The position numbers and the translations under genes are program-made. Shown piece by piece: positions 2,009 through 16,358 of a stretch of 19,034 nt of DNA (within the stretch, counting starts at the first letter, position 1; every line of letters starts with the position of its first letter). The notes under the pieces are model-generated. The model saw nothing but the letters and a program-made list of their open reading frames with translations. It was not told the origin of the DNA and made no database searches. This stretch comes from Fidelibacterota bacterium (GTDB lineage: Bacteria; Fidelibacterota; Marinisomatia; Marinisomatales; TCS56). The stretch covers positions 1-19,034 of the forward strand of contig JBDRBK010000179.1 of the NCBI GenBank assembly GCA_043822705.1, given 5' to 3'.

Positions 2009-4225
2009 TTATGTTTTAATAGGAATATTAATTACAGGTGTCAAAGGTCTGATCTGGGTTCTATAACGCGATGTTATTTTATTGTAAATATTATTATCAT
2101 TTTTAACTGTCACAGCAATAACCATTGCATATCTCAGTTTTGGGGCAAACAACCGAGCGTTACGCCCACTTTCCCTGGCCATATAATGAATATCAAATAC
2201 CGGTCCTTTTAAACTTGCTCCTCGCTTTGTTTTTTCACTATGCATTGTTGTTTCCCATTTCAAAGAATCCATTCGTAGTTCAAGTTCACCAGAATAGTTA
2301 CCGGCGCTAAAAAAAGAATCTGTTATTGCCACAGTTGAATCTTCTCTAAACTTATCTTCATGCGGTCGAAATATCACACCAATTCCGGCTTTTGTGTAAT
2401 TCCCAATGTGGTTCGACTCAGTATCAGATACATAGCATAATGTTGCTTTAATATTTACATTGCCACTTATTTGTTCTTCTGGTAGTGGAATCTTTGCACG
2501 TATCACAGTTCCTGGTAATATCTCACCCTGATATAGAATTCTTACAGAACCCGGAGAGCAAATAACTAATTTTTCAATATTATTAGGAACCTTACCCCAT
2601 CCGATCTCATGTCTATTTTCACGGTTAGGAGTAGAACAATTTATCAGTAAAGTTTTAATGGCTAAAATACTTATTAAATTTCCAAAGTGAGCTCGAACTC
2701 CCATACCTAAACGCATAACAGATGGAGAGGCAAAGCTAGTTCCAACCGAAGGGGAATTCATCAGAGTATCACCATTTATTGTATTAAATGGCATATCTTC
2801 TGAACCGCCAAAAGCAACTACATCCGGCTTAATTAAACCGGGGCTACGCCCGGGTCCTATTGAGCTGTATGATGCACGCAACCAATTATCGTCTGTTGAG
2901 TCGATACTCCCAACACTTAAACCATTTACTGAATCAGAAGGAACTTGTATTCTATTAAATCTTAATATAGGATCAAGCTCACCTCCGTTGCCAACTGCTA
3001 TCGTACATAATGTATTGCCATTAGACAGTATTTCGTCAATAACAGATGTCCATACATGGACTTCATCATCTTCTATTGGCAATTCGGGTCCGATACTTAA
3101 ATTAACAAATTCATAAATATTAGATTGCAAAATGTCGCGAATCCGAATCAAAACATCAAAAAGATCTTCGTCTTGATCTATATTATTGTCTAATACCCTA
3201 TAATGGTCGATATAACCAAACGGACGGGGTATTTCTTCATCTTCTTGTATGTGACCAAATAAGGCTGAAGATGTTACTTTTTCGCCATGCTCTAAATAAT
3301 TTGGATTTGTTTGTAGGCACCCCTCGGTTTCATATGGGTTGGTCCAAGTAATTAGTGGGGATTTTGCTCTTATTCCCCCATCAAAAATTGCACCTACCAG
3401 TCCAGGGTCTATTGGTACACCAGTCGGCAATTGAATAGAAAAAAGATTTGCATTGTCATCGATATTTTGTCTAATTGGATGTGGTCTCAATCTTGGCATT
3501 GGTCTTATAGCTCGGATAAGTGAAAAATTCGCAAGTTGTTCAATCTGTTCTGGTCTTGAAACAGTTGGAATAAAAACAAGACCATTCGTTGATATACTTC
3601 GTCTCAAATCGGGGATAACACCAAGTGTCGTGGCATAACTATTATATGATAAATTAATGTCAATTTCTTCTTGCTGTATGTCTGTATGTATAACAACCTC
3701 ATATTTATTATTATGCGTACTTAGTGTGCCACCTTTTATTTTATCAATTGGTCTAATTGATGAAAATTTTTCAAATCGAGTAAGTTCGTCTCGAAGTTTA
3801 TTGTTAGCACTAAAAGTATTAAAGATTTCGGGCCATGCTTCAAGCTTGTTTTTATTACATGCTACGAAGTACTCTATTGTGAATGTTGGTATCATTTCCC
3901 TTTCAGTCGAGAACCTTCTTGGAACAATCTGTATTAGTTTGCTACCAACAATATCAACAGAAAGCTCATTAAATATTGTTTGAGGGTAATATGACATTGC
4001 CATGAATTCGGGATGCAAAACAAAAGATACTACAGCTATATTTTTGGGAAGAGAAAGCACGGGCATAGCATTTACAGTAGTAACTATTGCGCCAATATCT
4101 TGAGTTAAAAATTCCAAAGATTCACTATAATCATATACAGGTTTTTTCTCAATTTTTCTTCCAGGGAGTGTTGTCGGCTCTGATAGCCGTTCACCAAAAC
4201 CCAATATAAAATTTTGATTTAGCAT
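2009..4225 (-). CDS. S8 subtilisin-like serine peptidase, IetS/Y4bN-like
   Basis: Catalytic motifs FDGG (Asp), HGEKVTS (His), VGNGG (oxyanion Asn), KPDVVAFGG, GTSFASP (Ser). No signal peptide. SD-like TGAGGA upstream. Directly downstream of an AAA ATPase. Confidence 0.92.
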   Translation of the reverse strand: MLNQNFILGFGERLSEPTTLPGRKIEKKPVYDYSESLEFLTQDIGAIVTTVNAMPVLSLPKNIAVVSFVLHPEFMAMSYYPQTIFNELSVDIVGSKLIQIVPRRFSTEREMIPTFTIEYFVACNKNKLEAWPEIFNTFSANNKLRDELTRFEKFSSIRPIDKIKGGTLSTHNNKYEVVIHTDIQQEEIDINLSYNSYATTLGVIPDLRRSISTNGLVFIPTVSRPEQIEQLANFSLIRAIRPMPRLRPHPIRQNIDDNANLFSIQLPTGVPIDPGLVGAIFDGGIRAKSPLITWTNPYETEGCLQTNPNYLEHGEKVTSSALFGHIQEDEEIPRPFGYIDHYRVLDNNIDQDEDLFDVLIRIRDILQSNIYEFVNLSIGPELPIEDDEVHVWTSVIDEILSNGNTLCTIAVGNGGELDPILRFNRIQVPSDSVNGLSVGSIDSTDDNWLRASYSSIGPGRSPGLIKPDVVAFGGSEDMPFNTINGDTLMNSPSVGTSFASPSVMRLGMGVRAHFGNLISILAIKTLLINCSTPNRENRHEIGWGKVPNNIEKLVICSPGSVRILYQGEILPGTVIRAKIPLPEEQISGNVNIKATLCYVSDTESNHIGNYTKAGIGVIFRPHEDKFREDSTVAITDSFFSAGNYSGELELRMDSLKWETTMHSEKTKRGASLKGPVFDIHYMARESGRNARLFAPKLRYAMVIAVTVKNDNNIYNKITSRYRTQIRPLTPVINIPIKT

Positions 4226-4238
4226 ATATATTTCCTCA

Positions 4239-5333
4239 TTATATGTTTTGCCTAATTGTATCTCGACTGACCCCTGTTAATTTGTTGGCCAATCTTTGAG
4301 ATAATACATTTTCCGATACCAAATATGTAGCAAAGGCTTTTTTTTCAGGTTTTGTTAAAGAATCAACATGTTTTGAAATAAGTCTTTTAGCGTGTTCTTC
4401 AAGAGATTCGTTGTTAATCGCTAGAGCCCTTTTTACACGATTAATTTCCCTTTCTATATCACTAAATGAAAAATTTGAAAAGAGCCGTGCTATTACTTCT
4501 ACCCATGGCCCATGTTCTTGCCCAAAAGACCCAAGAAAGGTTATTACGGCCTTTCTTACTAGCTGAATATCTGGCATAGGAAAATTTATAAGCACATCAA
4601 ACCGTCTCCATATTGCAGGATCTAGCAAGTCTGGATGGTTTGTTGCCGCAATTATCAAGCCTGTTGATGGCCAATCATCAATTTCCTGTAATAAAACAGT
4701 TACCAGCCTTTTTAATTCACCAACTTCAGTTGAATCATCGCGCTTTTTGGCAATTGCGTCGAATTCATCTAGCAACAGAATACACTTCATGCTTTTTGCA
4801 TATTCTAACACACTACGGATATTGTTACCCGTTCTACCTAAAAAACTGCTCATTACAGCAGATAGGTCTAGTGTAAAAAGAGGCATATTTAATTCGCGCG
4901 CAATCCAATGCGCAGCCATAGATTTTCCCACGCCGGGCTTACCAGTAAAAATTACTGATTTCGATGGAGTGAGACCAATTTCTTCAAGACGATGCACATT
5001 TTGCCATTCAATAACTAGTTGGGTGATTTGTCGACCCAGATCTTCCTCCATGATAGGTTCATATTCTAGGCCTATATTAGGATTGTAGCGCAGTAATTGA
5101 ACTCGCGAGTCTATGTCCACCGGGATTGCATCTTTAATTCCTTTAACTGGAGAAAGTCTTGTGGGTGAACTACGCATAATCGATAAAATCTTTTCTCCGA
5201 AATTGGGCTTTTCATCTTTAAACTGCAGGTAAATTCTTCTTAGTAGTAACTGTACGTCTTGTTCGCGTCCTGTAAGCGCAACCCTGGCAAGGTGGGCTAT
5301 TATTTCTTCATACTTCATATTGTCGTCCAGCAT
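4239..5333 (-). CDS. AAA+ ATPase, IetA/Y4kL-like
   Basis: Walker A GKPGVGKS, Walker B LLLDEFD, sensor-1 IAATN, Arg finger DPAIWRRFD. Start is probably ATG 5333 (AAGGAG upstream) or 5318, not 5450. Confidence 0.93.
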   Translation of the reverse strand: MLDDNMKYEEIIAHLARVALTGREQDVQLLLRRIYLQFKDEKPNFGEKILSIMRSSPTRLSPVKGIKDAIPVDIDSRVQLLRYNPNIGLEYEPIMEEDLGRQITQLVIEWQNVHRLEEIGLTPSKSVIFTGKPGVGKSMAAHWIARELNMPLFTLDLSAVMSSFLGRTGNNIRSVLEYAKSMKCILLLDEFDAIAKKRDDSTEVGELKRLVTVLLQEIDDWPSTGLIIAATNHPDLLDPAIWRRFDVLINFPMPDIQLVRKAVITFLGSFGQEHGPWVEVIARLFSNFSFSDIEREINRVKRALAINNESLEEHAKRLISKHVDSLTKPEKKAFATYLVSENVLSQRLANKLTGVSRDTIRQNI

Positions 5334-5552
5334 CCCGTTATTTGTCTCCTTCGGTGTTTGGTTTAATTTATACCTATATGGACCAATATGCAACCACACA
5401 AGCATTACCAGTCCATTTTCAAGGATGGCGTCGATTATGATTGGCATCATAATTCACTCTTCATTAATACTATTCATAATGTCATACCCAGCCCCTTTAG
5501 AAAATTTCGTCCCCCATGAAATGAATTTGGTGCACTAAATGTCATTCGCTGC

Positions 5553-5585: not shown

Positions 5586-5629
5586 TACCGGCCGGAAACA
5601 TCCTATCGGCAAAGTGTCTCCGGCCGGTA
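5586..5629 (-). terminator. Strong hairpin just downstream of the small hypothetical gene
   Basis: TACCGGCCGGAAACA (5586-5600) / TGTCTCCGGCCGGTA (5615-5629): 15-bp stem, 1 mismatch, 14-nt loop, 8 nt past the stop. No clear U-tract. Confidence 0.5.
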
Positions 5630-5637
5630 TTTAGCGG

Positions 5638-5952
5638 CTACCTTTTAGCCGTAATCCCGAACTCGACCCAGCGTGATTTATCCATAGCCAGTTTCACCAC
5701 TTTGGTGGCTTCGCTGAGTTGGTTCTTGATTTCCAGAACCTGGGCGTCCAGTTCGGCCGTCTTGGTTTTCAGGGCGGCCTTGAGGGCCTCCTGTTCACCG
5801 TTCAGTGCTTCGGCATTCGTGGCAGCGGTTCCCAGGGCGGTTATGAATTCGGCGCTGAGTCCCCGGGCGGCCACCGCCGCGGCATTGGCCTGCAGGCCGG
5901 TAACCATCACCTTGGTGGTGCTGATTAATTCAGCGAAGGATGTATTTCCCAT
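5638..5952 (-). CDS. 104-aa alpha-helical/coiled-coil hypothetical protein
   Basis: ATG 5952 with AAAGGA SD. Amphipathic Ala/Leu/Lys/Glu-rich sequence (LNGEQEALKAALKTKTAELD) ending WVEFGITAKR. From recollection only, it resembles uncharacterised small proteins of Bacteroidota. Confidence 0.8.
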   Translation of the reverse strand: MGNTSFAELISTTKVMVTGLQANAAAVAARGLSAEFITALGTAATNAEALNGEQEALKAALKTKTAELDAQVLEIKNQLSEATKVVKLAMDKSRWVEFGITAKR

Positions 5953-5973
5953 GCTTGTTTCCTTTCTGTTGTT

Positions 5974-6097
5974 GGCGGGGTCGTTCAGCGGTCGTAATTG
6001 ACAGCCCCCCGCCACCTGGCCGGGCGACTATCACGCGCATCAGCGCCCGGTCGGGTCGAACCAGGCGCTGTGCGGCCGGATGCAGTCATCGGGTGGC
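5974..6097 (-). ncRNA. Putative structured leader RNA upstream of the small gene
   Basis: Inner 11-bp stem 6041-6051/6060-6070, whose single mismatch is a G-U pair only on the minus strand. Extended by CGCA/TGCG, GACT/AGTC and GCCACC/GGTGGC (6011-6016/6092-6097). Alternative helix GGCGGGG/CCCCGCC (5974-5980/6007-6013). Confidence 0.55.
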
Positions 6098-6120
6098 TTC
6101 GGAAAACAATAGTCGATTTG

Positions 6121-6309
6121 GGACGAAAGCATAATCCACCGGGACGAACAACCGGTCCATCCGGACGGAGTCGTGATCCATGTGGACGAAAGGAAGGTCT
6201 ATCGGGACGAAGGCGTGGTCCATATGGACGGAAGGTCGGTCCACCCGGACGAAGCAGTGGTCCACCTGGACGAAAGGATCGTCCACCGGGACGGAAGGTT
6301 GGTCCGGAT
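6121..6309. repeat. Tandem array of nine 21-bp quasi-palindromic units, consensus GGACGRA-N6-RTCCAYNN
   Basis: Units start at 6121, 6142, 6163, 6184, 6205, 6226, 6247, 6268, 6289. Period is exactly 21 nt, GGACG is invariant, and all nine 6-nt cores differ. Confidence 0.95.
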
Positions 6310-6490
6310 AAAAACCAGGCAAAGCGTGTCGGAATACGGAACGTGCTATACTGCCACCCGTGACAATTGACATAAACATACCCCGTTTAATTAAAAACTC
6401 CGCCTGAAATTAATAAAATATCGGTGCACTGGCATTCAATTGATAATCGGGATCGCATTGACAATCGGCATTGACTGCGACAGCGTCTAT

Positions 6491-7504
6491 TCAGGAATCA
6501 TAATTGACCAATCCGGTTTCCATTTCGAGCAGCTCGTGCAATTTGGCGCGCAGCAGTTGTTTATCGATCAGCCTGGTTTCATAATCGGCGATCAGGGTTG
6601 GTGAAATATTGCGGGCCAGGGCGAATTCCACCACTTCGGCGTCTTTTCCTTTGCAGAGCAAAATCCCGACACTGGGATTCTCATGCCCCTTCTTAAACTC
6701 CCGGTCCAGGGCCTCCGGATAGAAATTCATTTTTCCCAGAAATTCCGGTTTAAAATCTTCGGTTTTCAGTTCCACCGCTACCAGACACTGGAGATCACGG
6801 TGGAAGAACAGTAAATCAAGATAGTAGTCATGGTTACCCACCTCTACACGATATTCCTGGCCGATAAACGAGAATCCCCGGCCCAATTCCAGGATGAAAT
6901 CCTTCAGGTTCGCTACCAGCGCTTTTTGCAGGTCGTTCTCAGAGTAATTTTTAGGCAAATCCAGAAATTCAAAGATGTAAGTATCTTTGAAAAAATGCGC
7001 CGTTTGTGATTGTGTCACCACCGGCAGGGTTTTGCCGCCGGCCGGCAATGTCCGCTCATATACCGCCGTATTCAATTGTCTTTCGAGTTCACGTGAAGAC
7101 AGTTTATCCCCGATTGTAAGATTTACGTAAAACTCCCTCTCAGCCCTTGATTTTGTTTTTGCCAATATTAATCGATGGTGGATCCAGGTTAATTGTGCCC
7201 GCAGTGCGGACACTTATTCATGATCTTTGTACGTCTCATAAAACTGTTTCATTCGGTAAAGGCCGCGGCGGGTGAAGCCTTTGGTGTCAGGATACTGGTC
7301 ACGAATAAATTCCACCAGATTATCCACCACGCCGGAACCCCACTCCGCCGATGCCACTTTTTCTGAAATAAACTTGCCCGTTTCGTAGTACAGGTTAATC
7401 AGTTCCGCGTTTACCTGAGCAAGCGCCCGCCCGCGGGCGGACTGAATCATTAAAATAATATGCTGAAAGTCCCGGTTTAAATCAGTGGAAATATTACCGC
7501 GCAT
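6491..7504 (-). pseudogene. YhcG/DUF1016 PDDEXK nuclease-domain gene interrupted by an in-frame stop
   Basis: ORFs 7214..7504 (DUF1016_N: VNAELINLYYETG, WGSGVV, GFTRRGLYRMKQFY) and 6491..7213 (KDTYIFEFL, ELGRGFSFIG, YLDLLFFHRDLQCLVAVELK) share one frame and are separated only by TAA at 7214-7216. Confidence 0.85.
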
Positions 7505-7678: not shown

Positions 7679-8020
7679 ATGCACGAAATGTCAATTGCCA
7701 TGAACGTGGTGGAAATCGCCACCAGCCAGGCCCTCCAGAATGAAGCCCGGCGAATCAATTCGATCACCCTGGATATCGGCAGTCTGGCGGGAGTGATGAT
7801 CGAGGCGCTGGAATTCTGCTTCGCTTCTGTTGGCAAAGGCACCATGGCCGAAGGGGCCGAATTGCGGATCAATGAGATTGCCGCCTGGGGCTGCTGCCGC
7901 GACTGCGGCGAAGAATTCCGCACCGAAACCTACCTGACGGCCTGTCCGGCCTGCGGCGCTTTCCGGATTGACATTATCCGGGGGCGGGAACTGAAGATTA
8001 AAACCATCAATGTTGATTAG
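7679..8020 (+). CDS. hypA: Hydrogenase maturation nickel metallochaperone HypA
   Basis: N-terminal MHE Ni motif, two CxxC (CRDC, CPAC), GREL near the C-terminus. Confidence 0.97.
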   Translation: MHEMSIAMNVVEIATSQALQNEARRINSITLDIGSLAGVMIEALEFCFASVGKGTMAEGAELRINEIAAWGCCRDCGEEFRTETYLTACPACGAFRIDIIRGRELKIKTINVD

Positions 8021-8028
8021 GACCAATT

Positions 8029-8817
8029 ATGTGTGACACCTGCGGCTGCGGAGCTGACGAAGTAACGATCCGGAAACCGGGGCAACAACCCGGCCACGCC
8101 CATACGCACGACCTCCATCATGATCATTCTCACGATCACACCCACGACCACGATCATTCCCACGCCATCATCGTGGAACAGGATCTGCTGACCCGGAACA
8201 ATCTGCTGGCGGAGCGCAACCGCGGCTATTTTGAAGCTCTGGGCATCCTGGCCCTGAACCTGGTCAGTTCGCCCGGTTCCGGCAAGACCACCCTGCTGGA
8301 AAAAACGATCGCGGCCCTGAAAGATGAAATTAAAATCGCGGTGATCGAAGGCGACCAGCAGACCACCAACGACGCCGACCGGATTGCCAAAAGCGGCGCC
8401 CCGGTGATTCAGGTCAATACCGGCGCCGGCTGCCACCTGGATGCCAACATGATCAACCGGGCGGCCAAGGAACTGGAACCGGCCGGAGATTCCCTGCTGC
8501 TGATCGAAAACGTCGGCAACCTGGTCTGCCCGGCCCTGTTCGATCTGGGCGAGGCCCACAAGGTGGTGATCATCAGCGTCACCGAAGGTCAGGACAAGCC
8601 GGAAAAATATCCCCACATGTTCGCCGCCGCCGATCTTTGTATCATCAACAAGACCGACCTGCTGCCCTACGTCGATTTCGACGTGGAAAAATGCAAGCAG
8701 TTGGCCCTGCAGGTGAATCACCACCTGCGGTTTATCGAACTTTCGGCCCGGACGGGGGAAGGCTTGGAGGACTGGCTGGTCTGGATCAAAAAAGAACTGG
8801 CGACCCGGCAGAAATAA
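8029..8817 (+). CDS. hypB: Hydrogenase nickel incorporation GTPase HypB
   Basis: N-terminal CxxCGC, His-rich linker, SSPGSGKT, CHLDA, ENVGNLVCP, NKTDL. Confidence 0.98.
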   Translation: MCDTCGCGADEVTIRKPGQQPGHAHTHDLHHDHSHDHTHDHDHSHAIIVEQDLLTRNNLLAERNRGYFEALGILALNLVSSPGSGKTTLLEKTIAALKDEIKIAVIEGDQQTTNDADRIAKSGAPVIQVNTGAGCHLDANMINRAAKELEPAGDSLLLIENVGNLVCPALFDLGEAHKVVIISVTEGQDKPEKYPHMFAAADLCIINKTDLLPYVDFDVEKCKQLALQVNHHLRFIELSARTGEGLEDWLVWIKKELATRQK

Positions 8818-8823
8818 CGTTTG

Positions 8824-11088
8824 ATGACCTTACGGAAACGAATCCGGGTCAACGGAATTGTACAGGGGGTCGGCTTCCGCCCCTTCATTTTTAACCTGGC
8901 CCACAGGCACCGGCTCGGCGGCTTTGTTACCAATGCTTCCACCGGCGTCATCATCGAAGTTCAGGGTCCGGAGTCGGCCATAACCGAATTTTTAACCGCT
9001 ATCAGCCGGGACGCCCCGCCCCTGGCGCTGATCACCGAAATTTCCGCCAGCGACCTTTCCCTCTCCGGCGCGGGTGAATTTGTAATTACTGCTTCCGATA
9101 ACCAGGCACCGGTGGCCACGATGATCTCTCCCGATATCGCCGTCTGCGACGATTGCCGCCGGGAACTGTTCGATCCGGCCGACCGCCGCTACCGCTACCC
9201 GTTTATCAACTGCACCAACTGCGGGCCGCGCTACACGATTATCGAGGCCTTGCCTTATGACCGGCCGCTGACGTCGATGCGCGATTTTAAGATGTGTCCC
9301 GCCTGCCAGGCCGAGTACGACGATCCCGCCAACCGGCGCTTCCATGCCCAGCCCAACGCCTGTCCGGTCTGCGGCCCGCGGCTGAAGCTTTTAAACATCG
9401 ATAAACAAGTGATCGCAGCCGCCGATCCAATCAAGGAAACGGTCCGGTTGCTGAAAGCCGGGAAGATTCTGGCAATCAAGAGCCTGGGCGGTTTTCACTT
9501 AGCAGTCGACGCGACCGACGCTGTCGCCGTAACCGAGCTGCGGCGCCGCAAGCAGCGTGAGGAAAAACCGCTGGCGGTGATGGTTAAAGATCTGACGGCA
9601 GCCCGGCAAATCTGTGAATTAACTGCGGCGGAAGAGGATTTGCTGGTATCGCCGCGCGCCCCGATCGTGCTGGCCCGCAAGCGCGCTGATTTACCTTTGG
9701 CCGATGAAGTTGCCCCCGGCAACGACCGCCTTGGCGTCATGCTGCCCTACACGCCCCTGCACCACCTGCTGCTGGCGGAGTATTTTGATGCACTGGTGAT
9801 GACCAGCGCCAACCTCAGCGAGGAGCCGATCTGCATCGCTAATTCTGAAGCGTTCGAACGGCTGCGGAATATAACTGATTTCGTGCTGGTCCACGACCGC
9901 GATATTTACCTGCGTGGCGACGATTCGGTGTTCATTCATCTGGCCGGTAAAAACCGGCCGCTGCGTCGCAGTCGCGGTTACGCTCCCGCGCCGGTGTTGG
10001 TGAAATCGGTTGGTGCACCGTTACTGGCGGTGGGCGGCGAATTGAAAAATACCGTCTGTCTTCTGCAGGACGACCGGGCGTTTATGAGCCAGCATATCGG
10101 CGACCTGGAAAATCTGGAAGCCTACAATTTCTTCCGCAAGACCATCGACCACCTGCAAAAGATATTTGACACGCAGCCGGAACTAATCGTTCACGATCTA
10201 CATCCCCGCTACCTGTCCACCCAGTGGGCCAAAGAGCAGCCTGTGCCACTGCTGGGGGTCCAGCATCACCACGCCCACCTGGCCGCGGTGCTGGCCGAGC
10301 ATCGACTGGACGAACCGGTGATCGGGATCATTATGGATGGCACCGGTTACGGCAGCGACGGCACGATCTGGGGTGGCGAAATATTAATCGGTGACTTCAG
10401 CGGTTTCGAGCGCTTCGCCGCATTTGAACCGCTGCCCCTGCCCGGTGGTGATGCCGCCATCAAGGCGCCTTGGCGCACGGCGGTGGCTTATCTCCAGGAT
10501 ACCTTCGGGGACGATCTGCCCGATTTACCGTTTTTGCAGGAGGTTGAACACCAACCGATCAGCGAAATGGTGGCCAAAAACATTAATTGTTTTCCAACCA
10601 GCAGTTGCGGGCGCCTGTTCGACGCGGTGGCGGCCATGGCCGGCGGCCGTCCAACAATCCGCTATGAAGGTCAGGCGGCGATTGAATTGATGCAGGCCGC
10701 CGCCGCAATCAGTGGTAGTCCGTTTGACTTTTCCTTTGCCAGGAATGGCGCCTTGACTCAAATGGAAGTTAAGCCGCTGATCCGGTCCGTAGTTGAGGCG
10801 CTACGGACCGGCGCCGGTTTTGCTGAAATCGCCCGGCGCTTTCACCGGACGCTGATAGAGATATTCTCAGCAATTGTTGAGAAAGCCCGAAATGATTCAG
10901 GTATCGACAAAGTTGTTATTAGCGGTGGAGTTTTTCAGAACCAGTTGTTGTTTGAAAATCTGATTCCGCGCCTCGAAAAAGGTAAATTTGAAGTATTCGC
11001 CCATGAACAGGTACCTACCAACGATGGCGGCATCGCCCTGGGACAGGCCCTGATCGGCCGGAAGAAGCTGGAATCAGGCAATGTTTGA
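8824..11088 (+). CDS. hypF: Carbamoyltransferase HypF
   Basis: Acylphosphatase GIVQGVGFRPF, zinc fingers CDDC/CTNC/CPAC/CPVC, QHHHAH, DGTGYGSDG, PTNDGGIALGQ. Start is ATG 8824 or TTG 8821. Confidence 0.98.
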   Translation: MTLRKRIRVNGIVQGVGFRPFIFNLAHRHRLGGFVTNASTGVIIEVQGPESAITEFLTAISRDAPPLALITEISASDLSLSGAGEFVITASDNQAPVATMISPDIAVCDDCRRELFDPADRRYRYPFINCTNCGPRYTIIEALPYDRPLTSMRDFKMCPACQAEYDDPANRRFHAQPNACPVCGPRLKLLNIDKQVIAAADPIKETVRLLKAGKILAIKSLGGFHLAVDATDAVAVTELRRRKQREEKPLAVMVKDLTAARQICELTAAEEDLLVSPRAPIVLARKRADLPLADEVAPGNDRLGVMLPYTPLHHLLLAEYFDALVMTSANLSEEPICIANSEAFERLRNITDFVLVHDRDIYLRGDDSVFIHLAGKNRPLRRSRGYAPAPVLVKSVGAPLLAVGGELKNTVCLLQDDRAFMSQHIGDLENLEAYNFFRKTIDHLQKIFDTQPELIVHDLHPRYLSTQWAKEQPVPLLGVQHHHAHLAAVLAEHRLDEPVIGIIMDGTGYGSDGTIWGGEILIGDFSGFERFAAFEPLPLPGGDAAIKAPWRTAVAYLQDTFGDDLPDLPFLQEVEHQPISEMVAKNINCFPTSSCGRLFDAVAAMAGGRPTIRYEGQAAIELMQAAAAISGSPFDFSFARNGALTQMEVKPLIRSVVEALRTGAGFAEIARRFHRTLIEIFSAIVEKARNDSGIDKVVISGGVFQNQLLFENLIPRLEKGKFEVFAHEQVPTNDGGIALGQALIGRKKLESGNV

Positions 11089-11103
11089 ATCAGGAATAAT
11101 TTA

Positions 11104-11168
11104 TCACCCTGAGACTGTCGAAGGGTGTAATTTTTCTATATTCTCATGCTTCGACACGCTCAGCATGA
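11104..11168. repeat. REP/REPIN-like inverted doublet
   Basis: TCACCCTGAGACTGTCGAAGGGTG (11104-11127) and CATGCTTCGACACGCTCAGCATGA (11145-11168) are inverted relatives, each self-palindromic, around a 17-nt AT spacer. Confidence 0.8.
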
Positions 11169-11195
11169 CCGTAACTAGTATAAAAAGGTAGAACT

Positions 11196-11498
11196 ATGTG
11201 TTTAGGAATTCCGGGAAAAGTGATTGAGACCTACGAGGAAAATGGCCTGCTGATGGGCAAAGTTGATTTTGCCGGTACGATAAGTCAGGCCTGTCTGGCT
11301 TATGTACCGGAGATTGAAATCGGCCAGTACACGATTGTTCATGCCGGTTTCGGGATATCGATCGTCGATGAGGATGAGGCCCGCAAGACCTACGAAGCCT
11401 GGGAAGAACTGGTGGAAGCTGCCGCTAAGGAGGGAGTGGATTTATACGGCCAACCGCTGCCTAAAACCAGCAGTGGAGATGAGAAGTTGAGGCGATGA
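11196..11498 (+). CDS. hypC: Hydrogenase assembly chaperone HypC/HupF
   Basis: MCLGIPG start, VHAGFGI motif, position between hypF and hypD; carries a C-terminal extension. Confidence 0.96.
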
Positions 11499-11502
11499 TG
11501 GG

Positions 11503-11575
11503 AGCGAAGCAAAGAGCAAAGAGCAGAGAGCGAAGAGGCCAACAACCTTTAACTCCATTACTCCTGTTCTCAAGT
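11503..11575. repeat. Short-period intergenic repeats (7-mers then 8-mers)
   Basis: AGCAAAG AGCAAAG AGCAGAG AGCGAAG (11508-11535); ACTCCATT ACTCCTGT TCTCAAGT (11552-11575). Confidence 0.7.
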
Positions 11576-11580
11576 TTTTT

Positions 11581-12672
11581 ATGAAATATTTAGACGAATT
11601 CCGCGACCCACAAGTCGCCCGGGAAATTCTGGCCGAACTACACCAGACGGTGACCCGGCCCTGGGTGATCATGGAAATCTGTGGCGGGCAGACCCATTCA
11701 ATTATCAAGAATGGAATCGATCAGGTCATCCCCAGAGAGATCGAATTAGTCCACGGACCCGGTTGTCCGGTTTGCGTCACCCCCCTGGAAATAATCGATC
11801 AGGCCATTGCGATTGCCTCCCGGCCCAACGTGATATTCACAAGTTTTGGCGATATGCTGCGGGTGCCGGGCAGCCACAGTGATTTATTTATGGCGCGGAG
11901 TACCGGTGCCGATGTGCGAACGGTGTTTTCGCCTTTGGAGGCGTTAAAAATTGCCCGGGAAAATCCCGATTGGGAAGTGGTGTTTTTTGCCGTTGGATTC
12001 GAAACCACCGCCCCCGGAAACGCCATGGCGATCAACCAGGCCAAGGTCGAAGGTTTGACCAACTTCAGTGAACTGGCCAGTCACGTGCTGGTGCCGCCGG
12101 CCATGGAGGCGCTGCTGTCGTCGCCGGATAATCGCGTGCAGGGATATCTGGCGGCGGGCCATGTATGTACGATAATGGGTTGGGAAGAATACCAACCCAT
12201 TGCCGCCAAATACCGGGTGCCGATCGTGGTCACCGGATTTGAACCAGTCGATATTCTGGAGGGGCTGCTGATGACGGTCAAACAACTGGAATCAGGCCGC
12301 CATGAGGTCGAAAACCAGTATGTGCGCTCGGTCCGCCGTGAGGGCAACCGTCCTGCTCAGGATATCATCAAGCGTGTCTTTGAACCGGTCGCCCGCAAAT
12401 GGCGTGGCATCGGCGAAATTCCGCTCAGCGGCTACGGTATTCGCGAAGAATACGCCGTGTTCGACGCGGAGAAGAAATTTTCCGTGGGCAATATCACGAC
12501 TGAAGAATCGCCGCTGTGCATCAGCGGTGAAGTGCTCCGGGGTTTGAAGAAACCCCACGAATGCCCGGCTTTCGGCAAGGAATGTCTGCCGGAGCATCCC
12601 CTGGGGGCGCCGATGGTTTCCAGCGAAGGTGCATGCGCCGCCTACTATTGTTATAATCGAAAAGTTATTTAA
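11581..12672 (+). CDS. hypD: Hydrogenase formation protein HypD
   Basis: [28 protein letters not shown]-terminal Fe-S cysteines, [12 protein letters not shown]. Confidence 0.98.
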
Positions 12673-12704
12673 CCCAGAATCGAACAAGAACACTCAGTAA
12701 TTAT

Positions 12705-13766
12705 ATGTCTGATAAAACCTGTTTTCCCGAAGCACTGTCCTGTCCCCTGCCGATCATGGATTACGATACGATTCAATTATCCCACGGCGCCGGCGGCAAG
12801 CTGTCGGCCCAGTTGATCGAAAAACTGTTTCTGCCACGTTTTGGAAATCAGACCCTTGATAAATTGGAGGATCAGGCAGTTCTGACCCTGCCACCCGGCC
12901 GGGTGGCTTTCACTACCGATTCGTTTGTGGTTGATCCGATATTTTTCCCTGGCGGCGATATCGGCGACTTGGCGGTTAACGGCACGGTAAACGACATTTG
13001 CATGAGCGGAGCTGACCCGCTGTATATCAGCGTTGCCTTCATTCTGGAAGAGGGCTTGCCCATGGAAACGCTTCACCGTATTTTACTTTCGATGGAAACC
13101 GCCGCCCGGGCGGCCGGAGTCACAATTGTGACCGGCGATACCAAGGTGGTTAATCACGGAAAATGCGACCGGATTTTTATCAATACTTCCGGCCTGGGGG
13201 TGGTGCCGGATGGAGTTAATGTTTCAGCAGCCAACCTGCAGCCGGGGGATAAAATTATTATCTCCGGCACAGTGGCCGATCATGGTATGGCGGTCATGAC
13301 CACCCGTGAAGGATTGTCTTTTCAGTCCCGTATTAGTAGCGATACTGCTCCTCTGAACGGACTGGTAAAAGCAATGCTGGCGGCGACCAGGGAAATCCAT
13401 GCCATGCGCGATCCCACCCGTGGCGGATTGGCAACCTCGCTGAATGAATTCGCCCGGTCATCCAAAGTCGGAATTCGCCTGGAAGAGGGTGCGGTTCCGG
13501 TCCGGCCGGAAGTAAACGGCGCCTGCGAAATCCTGGGGATAGATCCGCTCTATGTGGCCAACGAAGGCAAGCTGGTTGCGGTGGTGCCCGGGCAAATTGC
13601 AGGCCAGGTCTTGACAGCCATGCGGCGACATCGGTATGGTCAGGATGCCACCATCATTGGTGAAGTTACATCTGATAATCCCGGACTGGTTATCATGCAC
13701 ACAGGACTGGGCGCCAACCGAATTGTCGATATGCCGGTTGGCGATCTACTGCCGCGGATTTGCTGA
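12705..13766 (+). CDS. hypE: Carbamoyl dehydratase HypE
   Basis: HGAGG, DSFVVDPIFFPGGDIG, GDTKVV, RDPTRGG, ANEGK, C-terminal PRIC. Confidence 0.98.
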   Translation: MSDKTCFPEALSCPLPIMDYDTIQLSHGAGGKLSAQLIEKLFLPRFGNQTLDKLEDQAVLTLPPGRVAFTTDSFVVDPIFFPGGDIGDLAVNGTVNDICMSGADPLYISVAFILEEGLPMETLHRILLSMETAARAAGVTIVTGDTKVVNHGKCDRIFINTSGLGVVPDGVNVSAANLQPGDKIIISGTVADHGMAVMTTREGLSFQSRISSDTAPLNGLVKAMLAATREIHAMRDPTRGGLATSLNEFARSSKVGIRLEEGAVPVRPEVNGACEILGIDPLYVANEGKLVAVVPGQIAGQVLTAMRRHRYGQDATIIGEVTSDNPGLVIMHTGLGANRIVDMPVGDLLPRIC

Positions 13767-15659: not shown

Positions 15660-16358
15660 ATGGAATTACAGGTTCTAATTTTCACTGCGATAAGCATCGG
15701 ATTCGTACATACTCTGATTGGGCCGGATCACTACATACCATTTATCATGATTGGACGGGCACGGAACTGGTCCCTGCGTTTTACCGCCATGATTACTGCG
15801 CTTTGTGGTGTCGGCCATGTTTTGGGATCGGTGGTTCTTGGTTTGCTGGGAATTGCCCTGGGCGTGGCCGTCGGCACCCTGGAACGGGTGGAGGCTGTCC
15901 GTGGTGATCTGGCGAGCTGGCTGCTTGTAGGCATCGGTGTGGCGTACGCCGCTTGGGGTCTCCGGATCGGCCTGCGCGCCGGCGAGCATGTTCATGAACA
16001 CGACCACAAGGAAGGGCATCACGATCACCGCCACCATCATTTGAGCAGCCATACCCACATTCACGGCGACACCAGTTCCGTCACCCCCTGGGCCCTGTTT
16101 ATTATTTTTGTGCTGGGTCCCTGCGAGCCGCTGATTCCGCTTCTGATGTATCCGGCGGCCAAGAATAGTTGGCTGGATCTGGCCTGGGTAACGCTGGCCT
16201 TCGGTGTGGTAACGATCCTGACCATGACGGCAATTGTAGTGGCGATGCACCGGGGATTGATCAACCTGCGCTTCGGAAAGCTGGAACGCTACATGCATGC
16301 CATCGCCGGTATTATTATCGCCCTGTCCGGATTGTCGATTATGCTGTTCGGGCTGTAA
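15660..16358 (+). CDS. Nickel/cobalt transporter-like membrane protein (UreH/DsbD_2/NiCoT-related)
   Basis: HTLIGPDH TM1 motif, GHV in TM2, His-rich loop, GPCE motif, about 6 TM; close to the hyp operon. Confidence 0.75.
   Translation: MELQVLIFTAISIGFVHTLIGPDHYIPFIMIGRARNWSLRFTAMITALCGVGHVLGSVVLGLLGIALGVAVGTLERVEAVRGDLASWLLVGIGVAYAAWGLRIGLRAGEHVHEHDHKEGHHDHRHHHLSSHTHIHGDTSSVTPWALFIIFVLGPCEPLIPLLMYPAAKNSWLDLAWVTLAFGVVTILTMTAIVVAMHRGLINLRFGKLERYMHAIAGIIIALSGLSIMLFGL

Follow-up and report, generated by a model that had tools for sequence, protein, structure and literature searches.

Results

The array lies upstream of a small gene

The window, by which we mean the whole 19,034-nt stretch of Fidelibacterota DNA analysed here (contig JBDRBK010000179.1), contains a tandem array at 6121..6309 (no strand assigned) made of nine units of 21 bp, each a 12-bp dyad plus a 9-bp linker. 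The array lies upstream of the gene P0001 (5638..5952, minus strand), which encodes a protein of 104 aa without a Pfam family, predicted to be all-helical and to pair as an antiparallel homodimer. Array and start codon are separated by a GC-rich stretch of 168 nt (5953..6120, minus strand), whose 155 gene-proximal bases fold better than shuffled sequences (z -2.97) and which carries a Shine-Dalgarno-like AAGGA at 5960..5964 (minus strand), 7 nt 5' of the ATG. A search of this stretch for a sigma-70-like promoter found none, and no terminator was called between the array and the gene. Directly 3' of the P0001 stop lies a strong hairpin (5586..5629, no strand assigned; z -5.44) that has no U-run and was not called an intrinsic terminator. 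No Rfam family matched anywhere in the window.

Array and gene sit in an island bounded by a LytTR regulator and hypA. IetA/IetS-like genes flank them on one side, and opposite these lies a YhcG-like gene in two pieces. The IetA/IetS-like genes (2009-5450, minus strand) encode an IetA-like AAA ATPase and an IetS-like S8 protease (PADLOC E 3e-83 and 7e-39) and are low in GC (33-41%). The YhcG/DUF1016-like gene (6491-7504, minus strand; PADLOC PDC-S02) is split over two adjacent ORFs of 96 aa and 240 aa. Further along (7679-13766, plus strand), hypA, identified by Pfam, is followed by ORFs that resemble hypB, F, C, D and E by translation. The HypB-like protein and a membrane protein encoded at 15660-16358 (plus strand) both contain His-rich stretches.

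Units of the array are related variants with partial two-fold symmetry

An earlier note, made from the letters of the window, had described nine contiguous units of exactly 21 nt from position 6121, nine different 6-nt cores, a tail RTCYAYNN from which unit 9 deviates, and GGACGGA at units 3, 6 and 9; all of these descriptions hold. Unit positions 1-5 (GGACG), 7, 15 and 16 are invariant in 9/9 units, and 15 positions per unit are near-constant. Periodicity scores reach 70.6 at lag 21 and 82.2 at lag 42; none of 200 shuffled windows scores above 19.2. The unit can be parsed as a 12-bp GTCC-N4-GGAC dyad that spans each unit junction, with the 6-nt core in the 9-bp linker. The proposed complementarity of GGAC and GTCC is found in part of the array: GGAC-N9-GTCC is exact within 6/9 units and GTCC-N4-GGAC at 5/8 junctions, and the sole perfect 12-bp palindrome lies at the junction of units 5 and 6 (6218..6229, no strand assigned). 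Dyad symmetry of the nine units is significant against column shuffles (p=0.016), with p=0.052 and 0.09 when the boundaries are trimmed automatically.

The higher-order periodicity claimed in the same note is present as a two-unit alternation (p=0.017 for lag 2 against lag 1, and p=0.022 when the cores are taken by themselves); a three-unit periodicity is not significant (p=0.18). Its picture of a constant scaffold with unique cores is not supported: the cores are related variants of one another, alike at 2.28 of 6 positions versus 1.69 by chance (p=0.003).

One related-strain contig (~94.5% identical) covers 5768-6584 at a depth of 4.8, so that single changes may be errors. Its listed changes number 4 over the 189 nt of the array; the gene has 6 over 185 nt and the flanks have 25 over 349 nt. 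The array thus diverges less than its flanks (p=0.015, or p=0.030 if one unplaced G>A change falls in the array) and is under purifying selection. Unit number and order are unchanged. All four array changes fall at unit positions 20-21; the 117 positions of the scaffold and the 54 of the cores have none. The absence of listed changes in the core bases (p=0.035 versus flanks) favours the earlier note's view of the cores, which are therefore not obviously neutral; a second, short related-strain contig has one core change, at 6175.

One gene family carries the array across five phyla

The earlier account of the array overlooked what matters most, its link to the 104-aa gene. A profile search with the 104-aa family returned 562 representatives at E<=0.001, from which we sampled 41 genome and 80 metagenome loci, plus four loci of the window's own genome. 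Dropping loci with <300 nt upstream and six weak coiled-coil matches left 105, and removal of those >=80% identical left 64 non-redundant relatives. A periodic array lies within 620 nt upstream of the gene in 55/64 of them, compared with 4/56 downstream and 2/47 far-upstream windows; the redundant set gives 96/111, 7/96 and 6/78. Three of the nine relatives that lack an upstream array have a downstream one, and in one locus counted as array-bearing (L035) the repeat unit may instead be 9 nt long.

The period of these 55 arrays is 21 nt in 51, 20 nt in 3 and 21.5 nt in 1; one related array is built of a 43-nt double unit, and mixed 20/21-nt arrays also occur. Arrays have a median of 11 units and typically stop ~90 nt short of the gene start. 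Gene-linked arrays occur in five phyla, represented (by record titles) by Bacteroidota, Chloroflexota, Bacillota and Fidelibacterota and by the cultured Treponema saccharophilum, which carries the array-gene module with the protein WP_002705223.1. The module is widespread, and it fits no family tested. Array sequence is free across the family: arms read, for example, GTCC/GGAC, CCCC/GGGG, GTAC/GTAC or ATTCC/GGAAT, GC ranges from 0.18 to 0.69, and the GGAC/GTCC scaffold itself is not conserved. The two-unit alternation is a family trait (31/41 arrays).

Pairing of gene and array also holds among paralogs. The window's own genome has four gene copies (P0001 and three paralogs), each with an upstream 21-nt array of different sequence, and each of five full-length paralogs sampled from genome G049 has an array, again differing in sequence. 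Three array patterns tested over five gene-bearing genomes each matched only their source genome. One own-genome paralog (G000:C136:41622-41934) is frameshifted yet retains its array, and near a paralog in G049 lie four near-identical 62-nt repeats (L167, 295-541).

A search for the gene found it in 0/40 related genomes. A generic four-unit CC-N4-GG pattern matched 1/40 of these gene-less genomes; it detects one array type only, and gene-less relatives are therefore not shown to be array-free. Residue-base covariation between protein and array gave scattered signals, none convincing, with statistics that ignore kinship. The arrays with a 20-nt period (L076, L077, L091, L120), few of them independent cases, are rich in A/T or purine/pyrimidine tracts. 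In Riemerella (L177, ~2730-2920), within a suf gene cluster, the 3' end of the coding sequence upstream itself shows a weak 21/42-nt periodicity.

P0001 is predicted to form an antiparallel dimer

An AlphaFold2 model of P0001 built from 142 sequences has helices at residues 6-22, 24-28, 34-89 and 92-98 (pLDDT 95.9). Modelled as a homodimer, the protein scored 0.79, versus 0.00 for the best of 3 controls, with pLDDT of at least 91 and runs that agree in at least 97% of contacts. That score was reached by 20/30 proteins solved as pairs and by 1/23 single chains, a calibration that is rough here because P0001 was run with its own alignment. The model thus favours pairing, and contacts 57-61, 50-68, 47-71 and 40-78 predict chains that run antiparallel about a two-fold axis close to residue 59. 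The conserved residues K58, K62, K64 and T65 map to this axis, and K/R83, K84 and K87 to both ends. The median pI of the family is 8.8, and P0001 itself is only mildly basic (net +1). An alpha helix rises ~1.5 A per residue; by this textbook figure, rather than from coordinates, the basic end patches would be separated by 71-83 A, a distance close to the 71 A that 21 bp span.

Sequence searches of Pfam, PHROGs, PADLOC and the PDB gave no family for P0001, and we recognised in it no DNA-binding fold and no catalytic fold or motif. The best fold-search hits (Z 7.0) are unrelated helical chains, with CsoR/CstR (Z 6.0-6.1) tied with noise, which does not make the fold new; a viral fold library gave nothing at E<=0.001. 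No relatives were found in the phage and viral collections IMG/VR and INPHARED. Five plasmid records carry family members, and the family is mostly chromosomal.

The nearest named family is NCBIfam NF052641 (PQLLE), a 211-position model with no function given, which 98/142 family members match weakly (best E 1.9e-10). P0001 was rejected as a member: its score is 21.2 bits, below the curated cut-off of 80, and its alignment spans model positions 110-201 and so covers one half of the model. The profile match of the family to a 217-aa relative is 89.5%, and the 104-aa family is a distant one-module relative of PQLLE. Five longer relatives from whole-genome searches (217-259 aa, L151-L155) also adjoin 21-nt arrays. 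A separate search turned up no longer fused forms, a negative that carries little weight. Modelled from its sequence alone, the 217-aa relative gave a structure too poor to use (pLDDT 47). A literature search for the word PQLLE found no paper.

Symmetry of the arrays points to double-stranded DNA

Dyad symmetry is significant in 34/46 related arrays cut in register, and 12/46 are not significantly symmetric. Complementarity, to which the earlier note had tied its reading, is kept in these 34 arrays despite changed letters. Within them, the bases on either side of the central two complement each other in 74% of units, a match beyond the reach of a hairpin within one unit, although not of pairing between units. 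The dyad centre A-N-N-T (76%/72%) is the sole feature of the family profile. Column variability is mirror-symmetric (r=0.92), but this is partly built in by the best-dyad alignment and we do not count it as evidence.

Since most relatives, in five phyla, carry a row of the same spacing and different sequence, the array is likely a set of DNA binding sites for this protein and not a miniature guide-RNA array. We propose a module in two parts, of which the array would be the cis half and the 104-aa helical gene the other. The array would act as double-stranded DNA, offering two-fold symmetric sites two helical turns apart, along which the predicted P0001 dimers could bind side by side on one face of the helix. 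Recognition would rely on geometry and the weak A-N-N-T centre rather than on a long sequence; the bound array may control the adjacent promoter, and gene-less sibling arrays elsewhere in the genome may serve as further sites. We give about even chances to this reading, in which dimers of the small protein would occupy a row of dyad sites in phase with the helix, next to the protein's own promoter, and the gene-less copies would provide extra sites. Points against it are that no DNA-binding fold is recognisable in the only mildly basic P0001, that arrays diverge quickly between proteins ~60% identical, with no convincing residue-base covariation, that promoters are not enriched outside Bacteroidota, that related arrays hold more open frames than the null, and that 12/46 arrays are not significantly symmetric and 9/64 relatives have no upstream array.

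A more ambitious version, which we regard as possible but tentative, would make the module a DNA-organising one, of a class not yet described. The rod-shaped coiled-coil dimer would act as a two-turn ruler that polymerises on its own array and on gene-less ones along the chromosome and reads their symmetry and spacing, not their sequence; it would be the missing partner of the unexplained 20-21-nt bacterial repeats and, kept beside cas1 in one lineage, could tune spacer acquisition.

Folding and promoter position argue against an RNA element

The array might instead work as RNA. It would then form part of a leader, or be transcribed separately, and the small protein would bind its repeated hairpins, as in an attenuator or a type III toxin-antitoxin-like pair. 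The array is co-oriented with the gene and upstream of it, and because no promoter was found between them in the window, it could lie inside the transcript here. The intervening stretch folds well, as noted above, and across the family the arrays outdo their shuffles in folding, with a median z of -2.1 for the sense and -2.5 for the antisense strand. However, the window array, for which the earlier note had suggested folding both strands, does not beat shuffles on the gene's (minus) strand (z -0.64) and does so weakly on the plus strand (z -1.90). Neither a G.U bias nor a strand preference is apparent, since G.T versus A.C mismatches on the gene's strand are in excess in 11 versus 15 arrays and the comparison of the strands in folding gives 21/46 arrays.

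Promoter position in relatives also counts against RNA. Bacteroidota promoters have a -7 motif with the consensus TAnnTTTG. This motif lies within 75 nt of the gene start (28-56 nt before it) in 21/24 Bacteroidota loci versus 2/96 control windows, downstream of the array where an array was seen. In Treponema saccharophilum, a sigma-70-like site (10 of 12 match) lies between array and gene; outside Bacteroidota, promoters are not enriched (9/42 loci vs 24/142 controls). Together with the lack of an Rfam match, these results make a function as RNA unlikely.

Mobility may concern some arrays

We consider equally improbable that the module is a selfish or mobile element, with the array as a recombination or copying substrate, the protein as a helper and gene-less arrays as non-autonomous copies. 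Its distribution is patchy (0/40 related genomes), several paralogs can share a genome, its neighbours across loci are mostly unrelated (75 flanking ORFs), and it often lies in defence islands. The own genome holds eight gene-less 21-nt arrays, most of which share 9-mers mainly with one gene-linked array; two of them, of the GGAC type, share 9-mers with the window array. Of four gene-less copies sampled from genome G041 (L161-L164), three have a common 5' end and three a common 3' end; their borders are AT-rich and their termini form an imperfect inverted repeat, and such arrays can therefore become MITE-like cargo. A Y1 transposase matches in 9/121 loci, all in a clade linked to cas genes, where it follows the gene and sometimes sits between module and cas genes. 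On the other hand, the protein lacks a catalytic fold or motif, the 12 own-genome 21-nt arrays share no flanks, and the phage and viral collections hold no match.

The cas-linked clade also held one position. Cas genes lie beside the module in 21/121 loci (L009-L011, L055-L071, L106), as a rule with cas3 or csc genes on its upstream side and cas1-cas2 on the other. These loci are the closest relatives of the module, and the 20 that have a full protein are 58-67% identical to P0001; effector modules differ among the loci, and the subclade stayed fixed in place while cas3/csc modules and array sequence changed. In the cas-linked genome G047, the CRISPR repeat (37 nt, period ~73) is unlike the 21-mer, and the window's own genome (93% complete) has no cas1; the cas link is therefore positional. 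One CRISPR repeat copy of G047 (L172, ~12440-12490) is broken by a short palindromic insertion.

Other short-period arrays occur in the window's own genome. A non-palindromic 22-nt array (L140; G000:C65:19411-20342) lies upstream of a gene for a 198-aa protein without a Pfam family and without detectable kinship to the 104-aa family. Gene-less siblings of this array are found on C40 and C146, and other 22-nt arrays on C40, C71, C115, C123, C126, C127 and C136. A 20-nt array (G000:C13:18044-18666) sits beside a fragment that shares 56% identity with the C-terminal region of the 198-aa protein.

Peptide, slippage and guides are improbable accounts of the arrays

Compared with binding sites in DNA, a heptad-repeat peptide encoded by the array, for instance a coiled-coil partner of the small protein, is quite improbable. 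It would be suggested by the unit of seven codons, by several frames open in the window, by an excess of open frames in the family over a dinucleotide-aware null (83 vs 60; antisense 32 vs 22) and by the strain comparison, where three of the four array changes are synonymous in one plus-strand frame. But the best frame is open in only 17/46 arrays, all three sense frames are stopped in 19/46 and all six in 8/46. There is no shared frame, arrays of 20-nt, mixed 20/21-nt and 43-nt units exist, and the related strain has lost 1 nt at 6119, which puts the very frame in question out of register. TA depletion (0.69) may explain part of the open-frame excess. With complementarity kept in 34/46 arrays while letters change, the earlier note's preference for a nucleotide-level constraint over a peptide is borne out.

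We also disfavour, at a similarly low level of belief, a neutral minisatellite that arose by slippage and template switching and hitch-hikes with the gene. Such an origin would suit the fast sequence turnover, the exactly duplicated units (12/46 related arrays), the two-unit alternation and the weak tracking of flank GC by array GC (rho 0.37). Against it stand a period fixed in five phyla with unrelated sequences, a position fixed relative to one gene family, and divergence below that of the flanks.

Least credible is the miniature repeat/variable-spacer array of the earlier note, with the 6-nt cores as guides or acquired memory: the nine different cores in a constant frame, their lack of listed change in the related strain and the cas genes beside the closest relatives speak for it, but the cores are alike and alternate, duplicated units are common, the joined cores match the own genome once against 0-4 times in shuffled order, no more than expected by chance, the 21-mer is unlike the G047 CRISPR repeat, the own genome lacks cas1, and no Nop or Cas domain was found.

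Discussion

What binding by the small protein would mean

Bacterial tandem repeats with a fixed unit of 20-21 nt and free sequence are an open puzzle, stated as such in the part of PMC8161180 available to us, and a small, soluble, single-domain candidate partner with an array of its own makes this puzzle directly testable. If P0001 dimers do bind the array, reading its spacing and symmetry without any known DNA-binding fold, DNA recognition of this kind would be new, and the arrays specific to each paralog would make natural orthogonal pairs. Should there be no binding, what is left is a minisatellite linked to a gene.

Comparison with known systems

CRISPR arrays alternate a conserved repeat of ~24-48 nt with unrelated spacers of ~20-45 nt. 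CRISPR-like arrays have periods of 60-79 nt and acquired variable parts, whereas here the period is 21 nt, the variable parts are related variants and no Cas domain is found. An assignment to CRISPR arrays or regulatory mini-arrays was rejected on the 21-nt period, the related 6-nt cores and the absence of an Rfam match, and kinship through a cognate cas locus or host repeat on the own genome's lack of cas1 and the dissimilar repeat of G047. Type III toxin-antitoxin loci (ToxIN, CptIN, TenpIN) have pseudoknot repeats of 34-57 nt followed by a terminator and then an RNase toxin gene; here the units are 21 nt, Rfam, Pfam and PADLOC give no match, and no terminator was called before the gene.

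ParR-parC, omega-repressor sites and plasmid iterons place a small dimeric protein beside helically phased repeats near its own promoter, and the module resembles them in having a small, predicted-dimer protein that adjoins a helically phased array. We nonetheless rejected ParR/parC and iteron/Rep as assignments: no ribbon-helix-helix, helix-turn-helix or Rep domain was found in P0001, its best fold hit (Z 7.0) ties with unrelated chains, and its neighbours are not conserved, with no conserved NTPase or origin near the module and a ParA-like neighbour in 1/75 flanking ORFs. REP/RAYT elements combine GTAG-tagged hairpins with an adjacent Y1 transposase; units of the window carry no GTAG tag, and a Y1 transposase matches in 9/121 loci, all of the cas-linked clade.

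TIGR-Tas arrays, in the accessible part of their description, have a 36-nt unit with two spacers, box C/D motifs and a Nop-domain partner, and TasR dimerises via a coiled coil (PMC12045711). The likeness is a repeat array that adjoins a small protein gene, with a coiled-coil dimer predicted here too. Yet the period is 21 in 51/55 arrays, not 18/36, and the layout is not that of box C/D, with the A-N-N-T centre only. No Nop match was found at E<=0.01 for P0001 or in the 25 top families of 142 members, and the fold search lists none, although absence from such a list is no exclusion. VIPR arrays have a 5-nt GGY/NN periodicity, as far as that source was accessible (bioRxiv 10.64898/2026.10.21.760802), and were rejected because the window unit is 21 nt with 15 near-constant positions. 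The strings '21-nt', '21 nt' and '21-bp' do not occur in the accessible main text of that preprint, whose periodicity filter drops some multiples of three and whose supplements or database may hold such arrays. The BrickBuilt MITE of Porphyromonas gingivalis is a dispersed intergenic minisatellite of 23-nt units with leader, tail and terminal inverted repeats, and with no linked gene in the part of the paper available to us (PMC4596501). The window array differs in having a partner gene and no common ends, which only the gene-less copies of G041 possess.

The closest precedent is the class of non-coding bacterial tandem repeats of constant 20-21-nt size and variable sequence described by Subirana and Messeguer, with short conserved motifs and several families per genome (PMC8161180). 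In the portion of their paper that we could consult, the authors noted the two helical turns, suggested an unknown polymerising protein, and named no partner protein or gene linkage. We found no description of this array-gene pairing in the literature searched, which left most subscription journals outside its reach. As far as the accessible text defines that class, the window array belongs to it by its constant 20-21-nt unit, free sequence, non-coding nature and several families per genome. The repeat class is already in print without a partner protein; the element added here is the pairing, a gene family tied to the array in 55/64 relatives.
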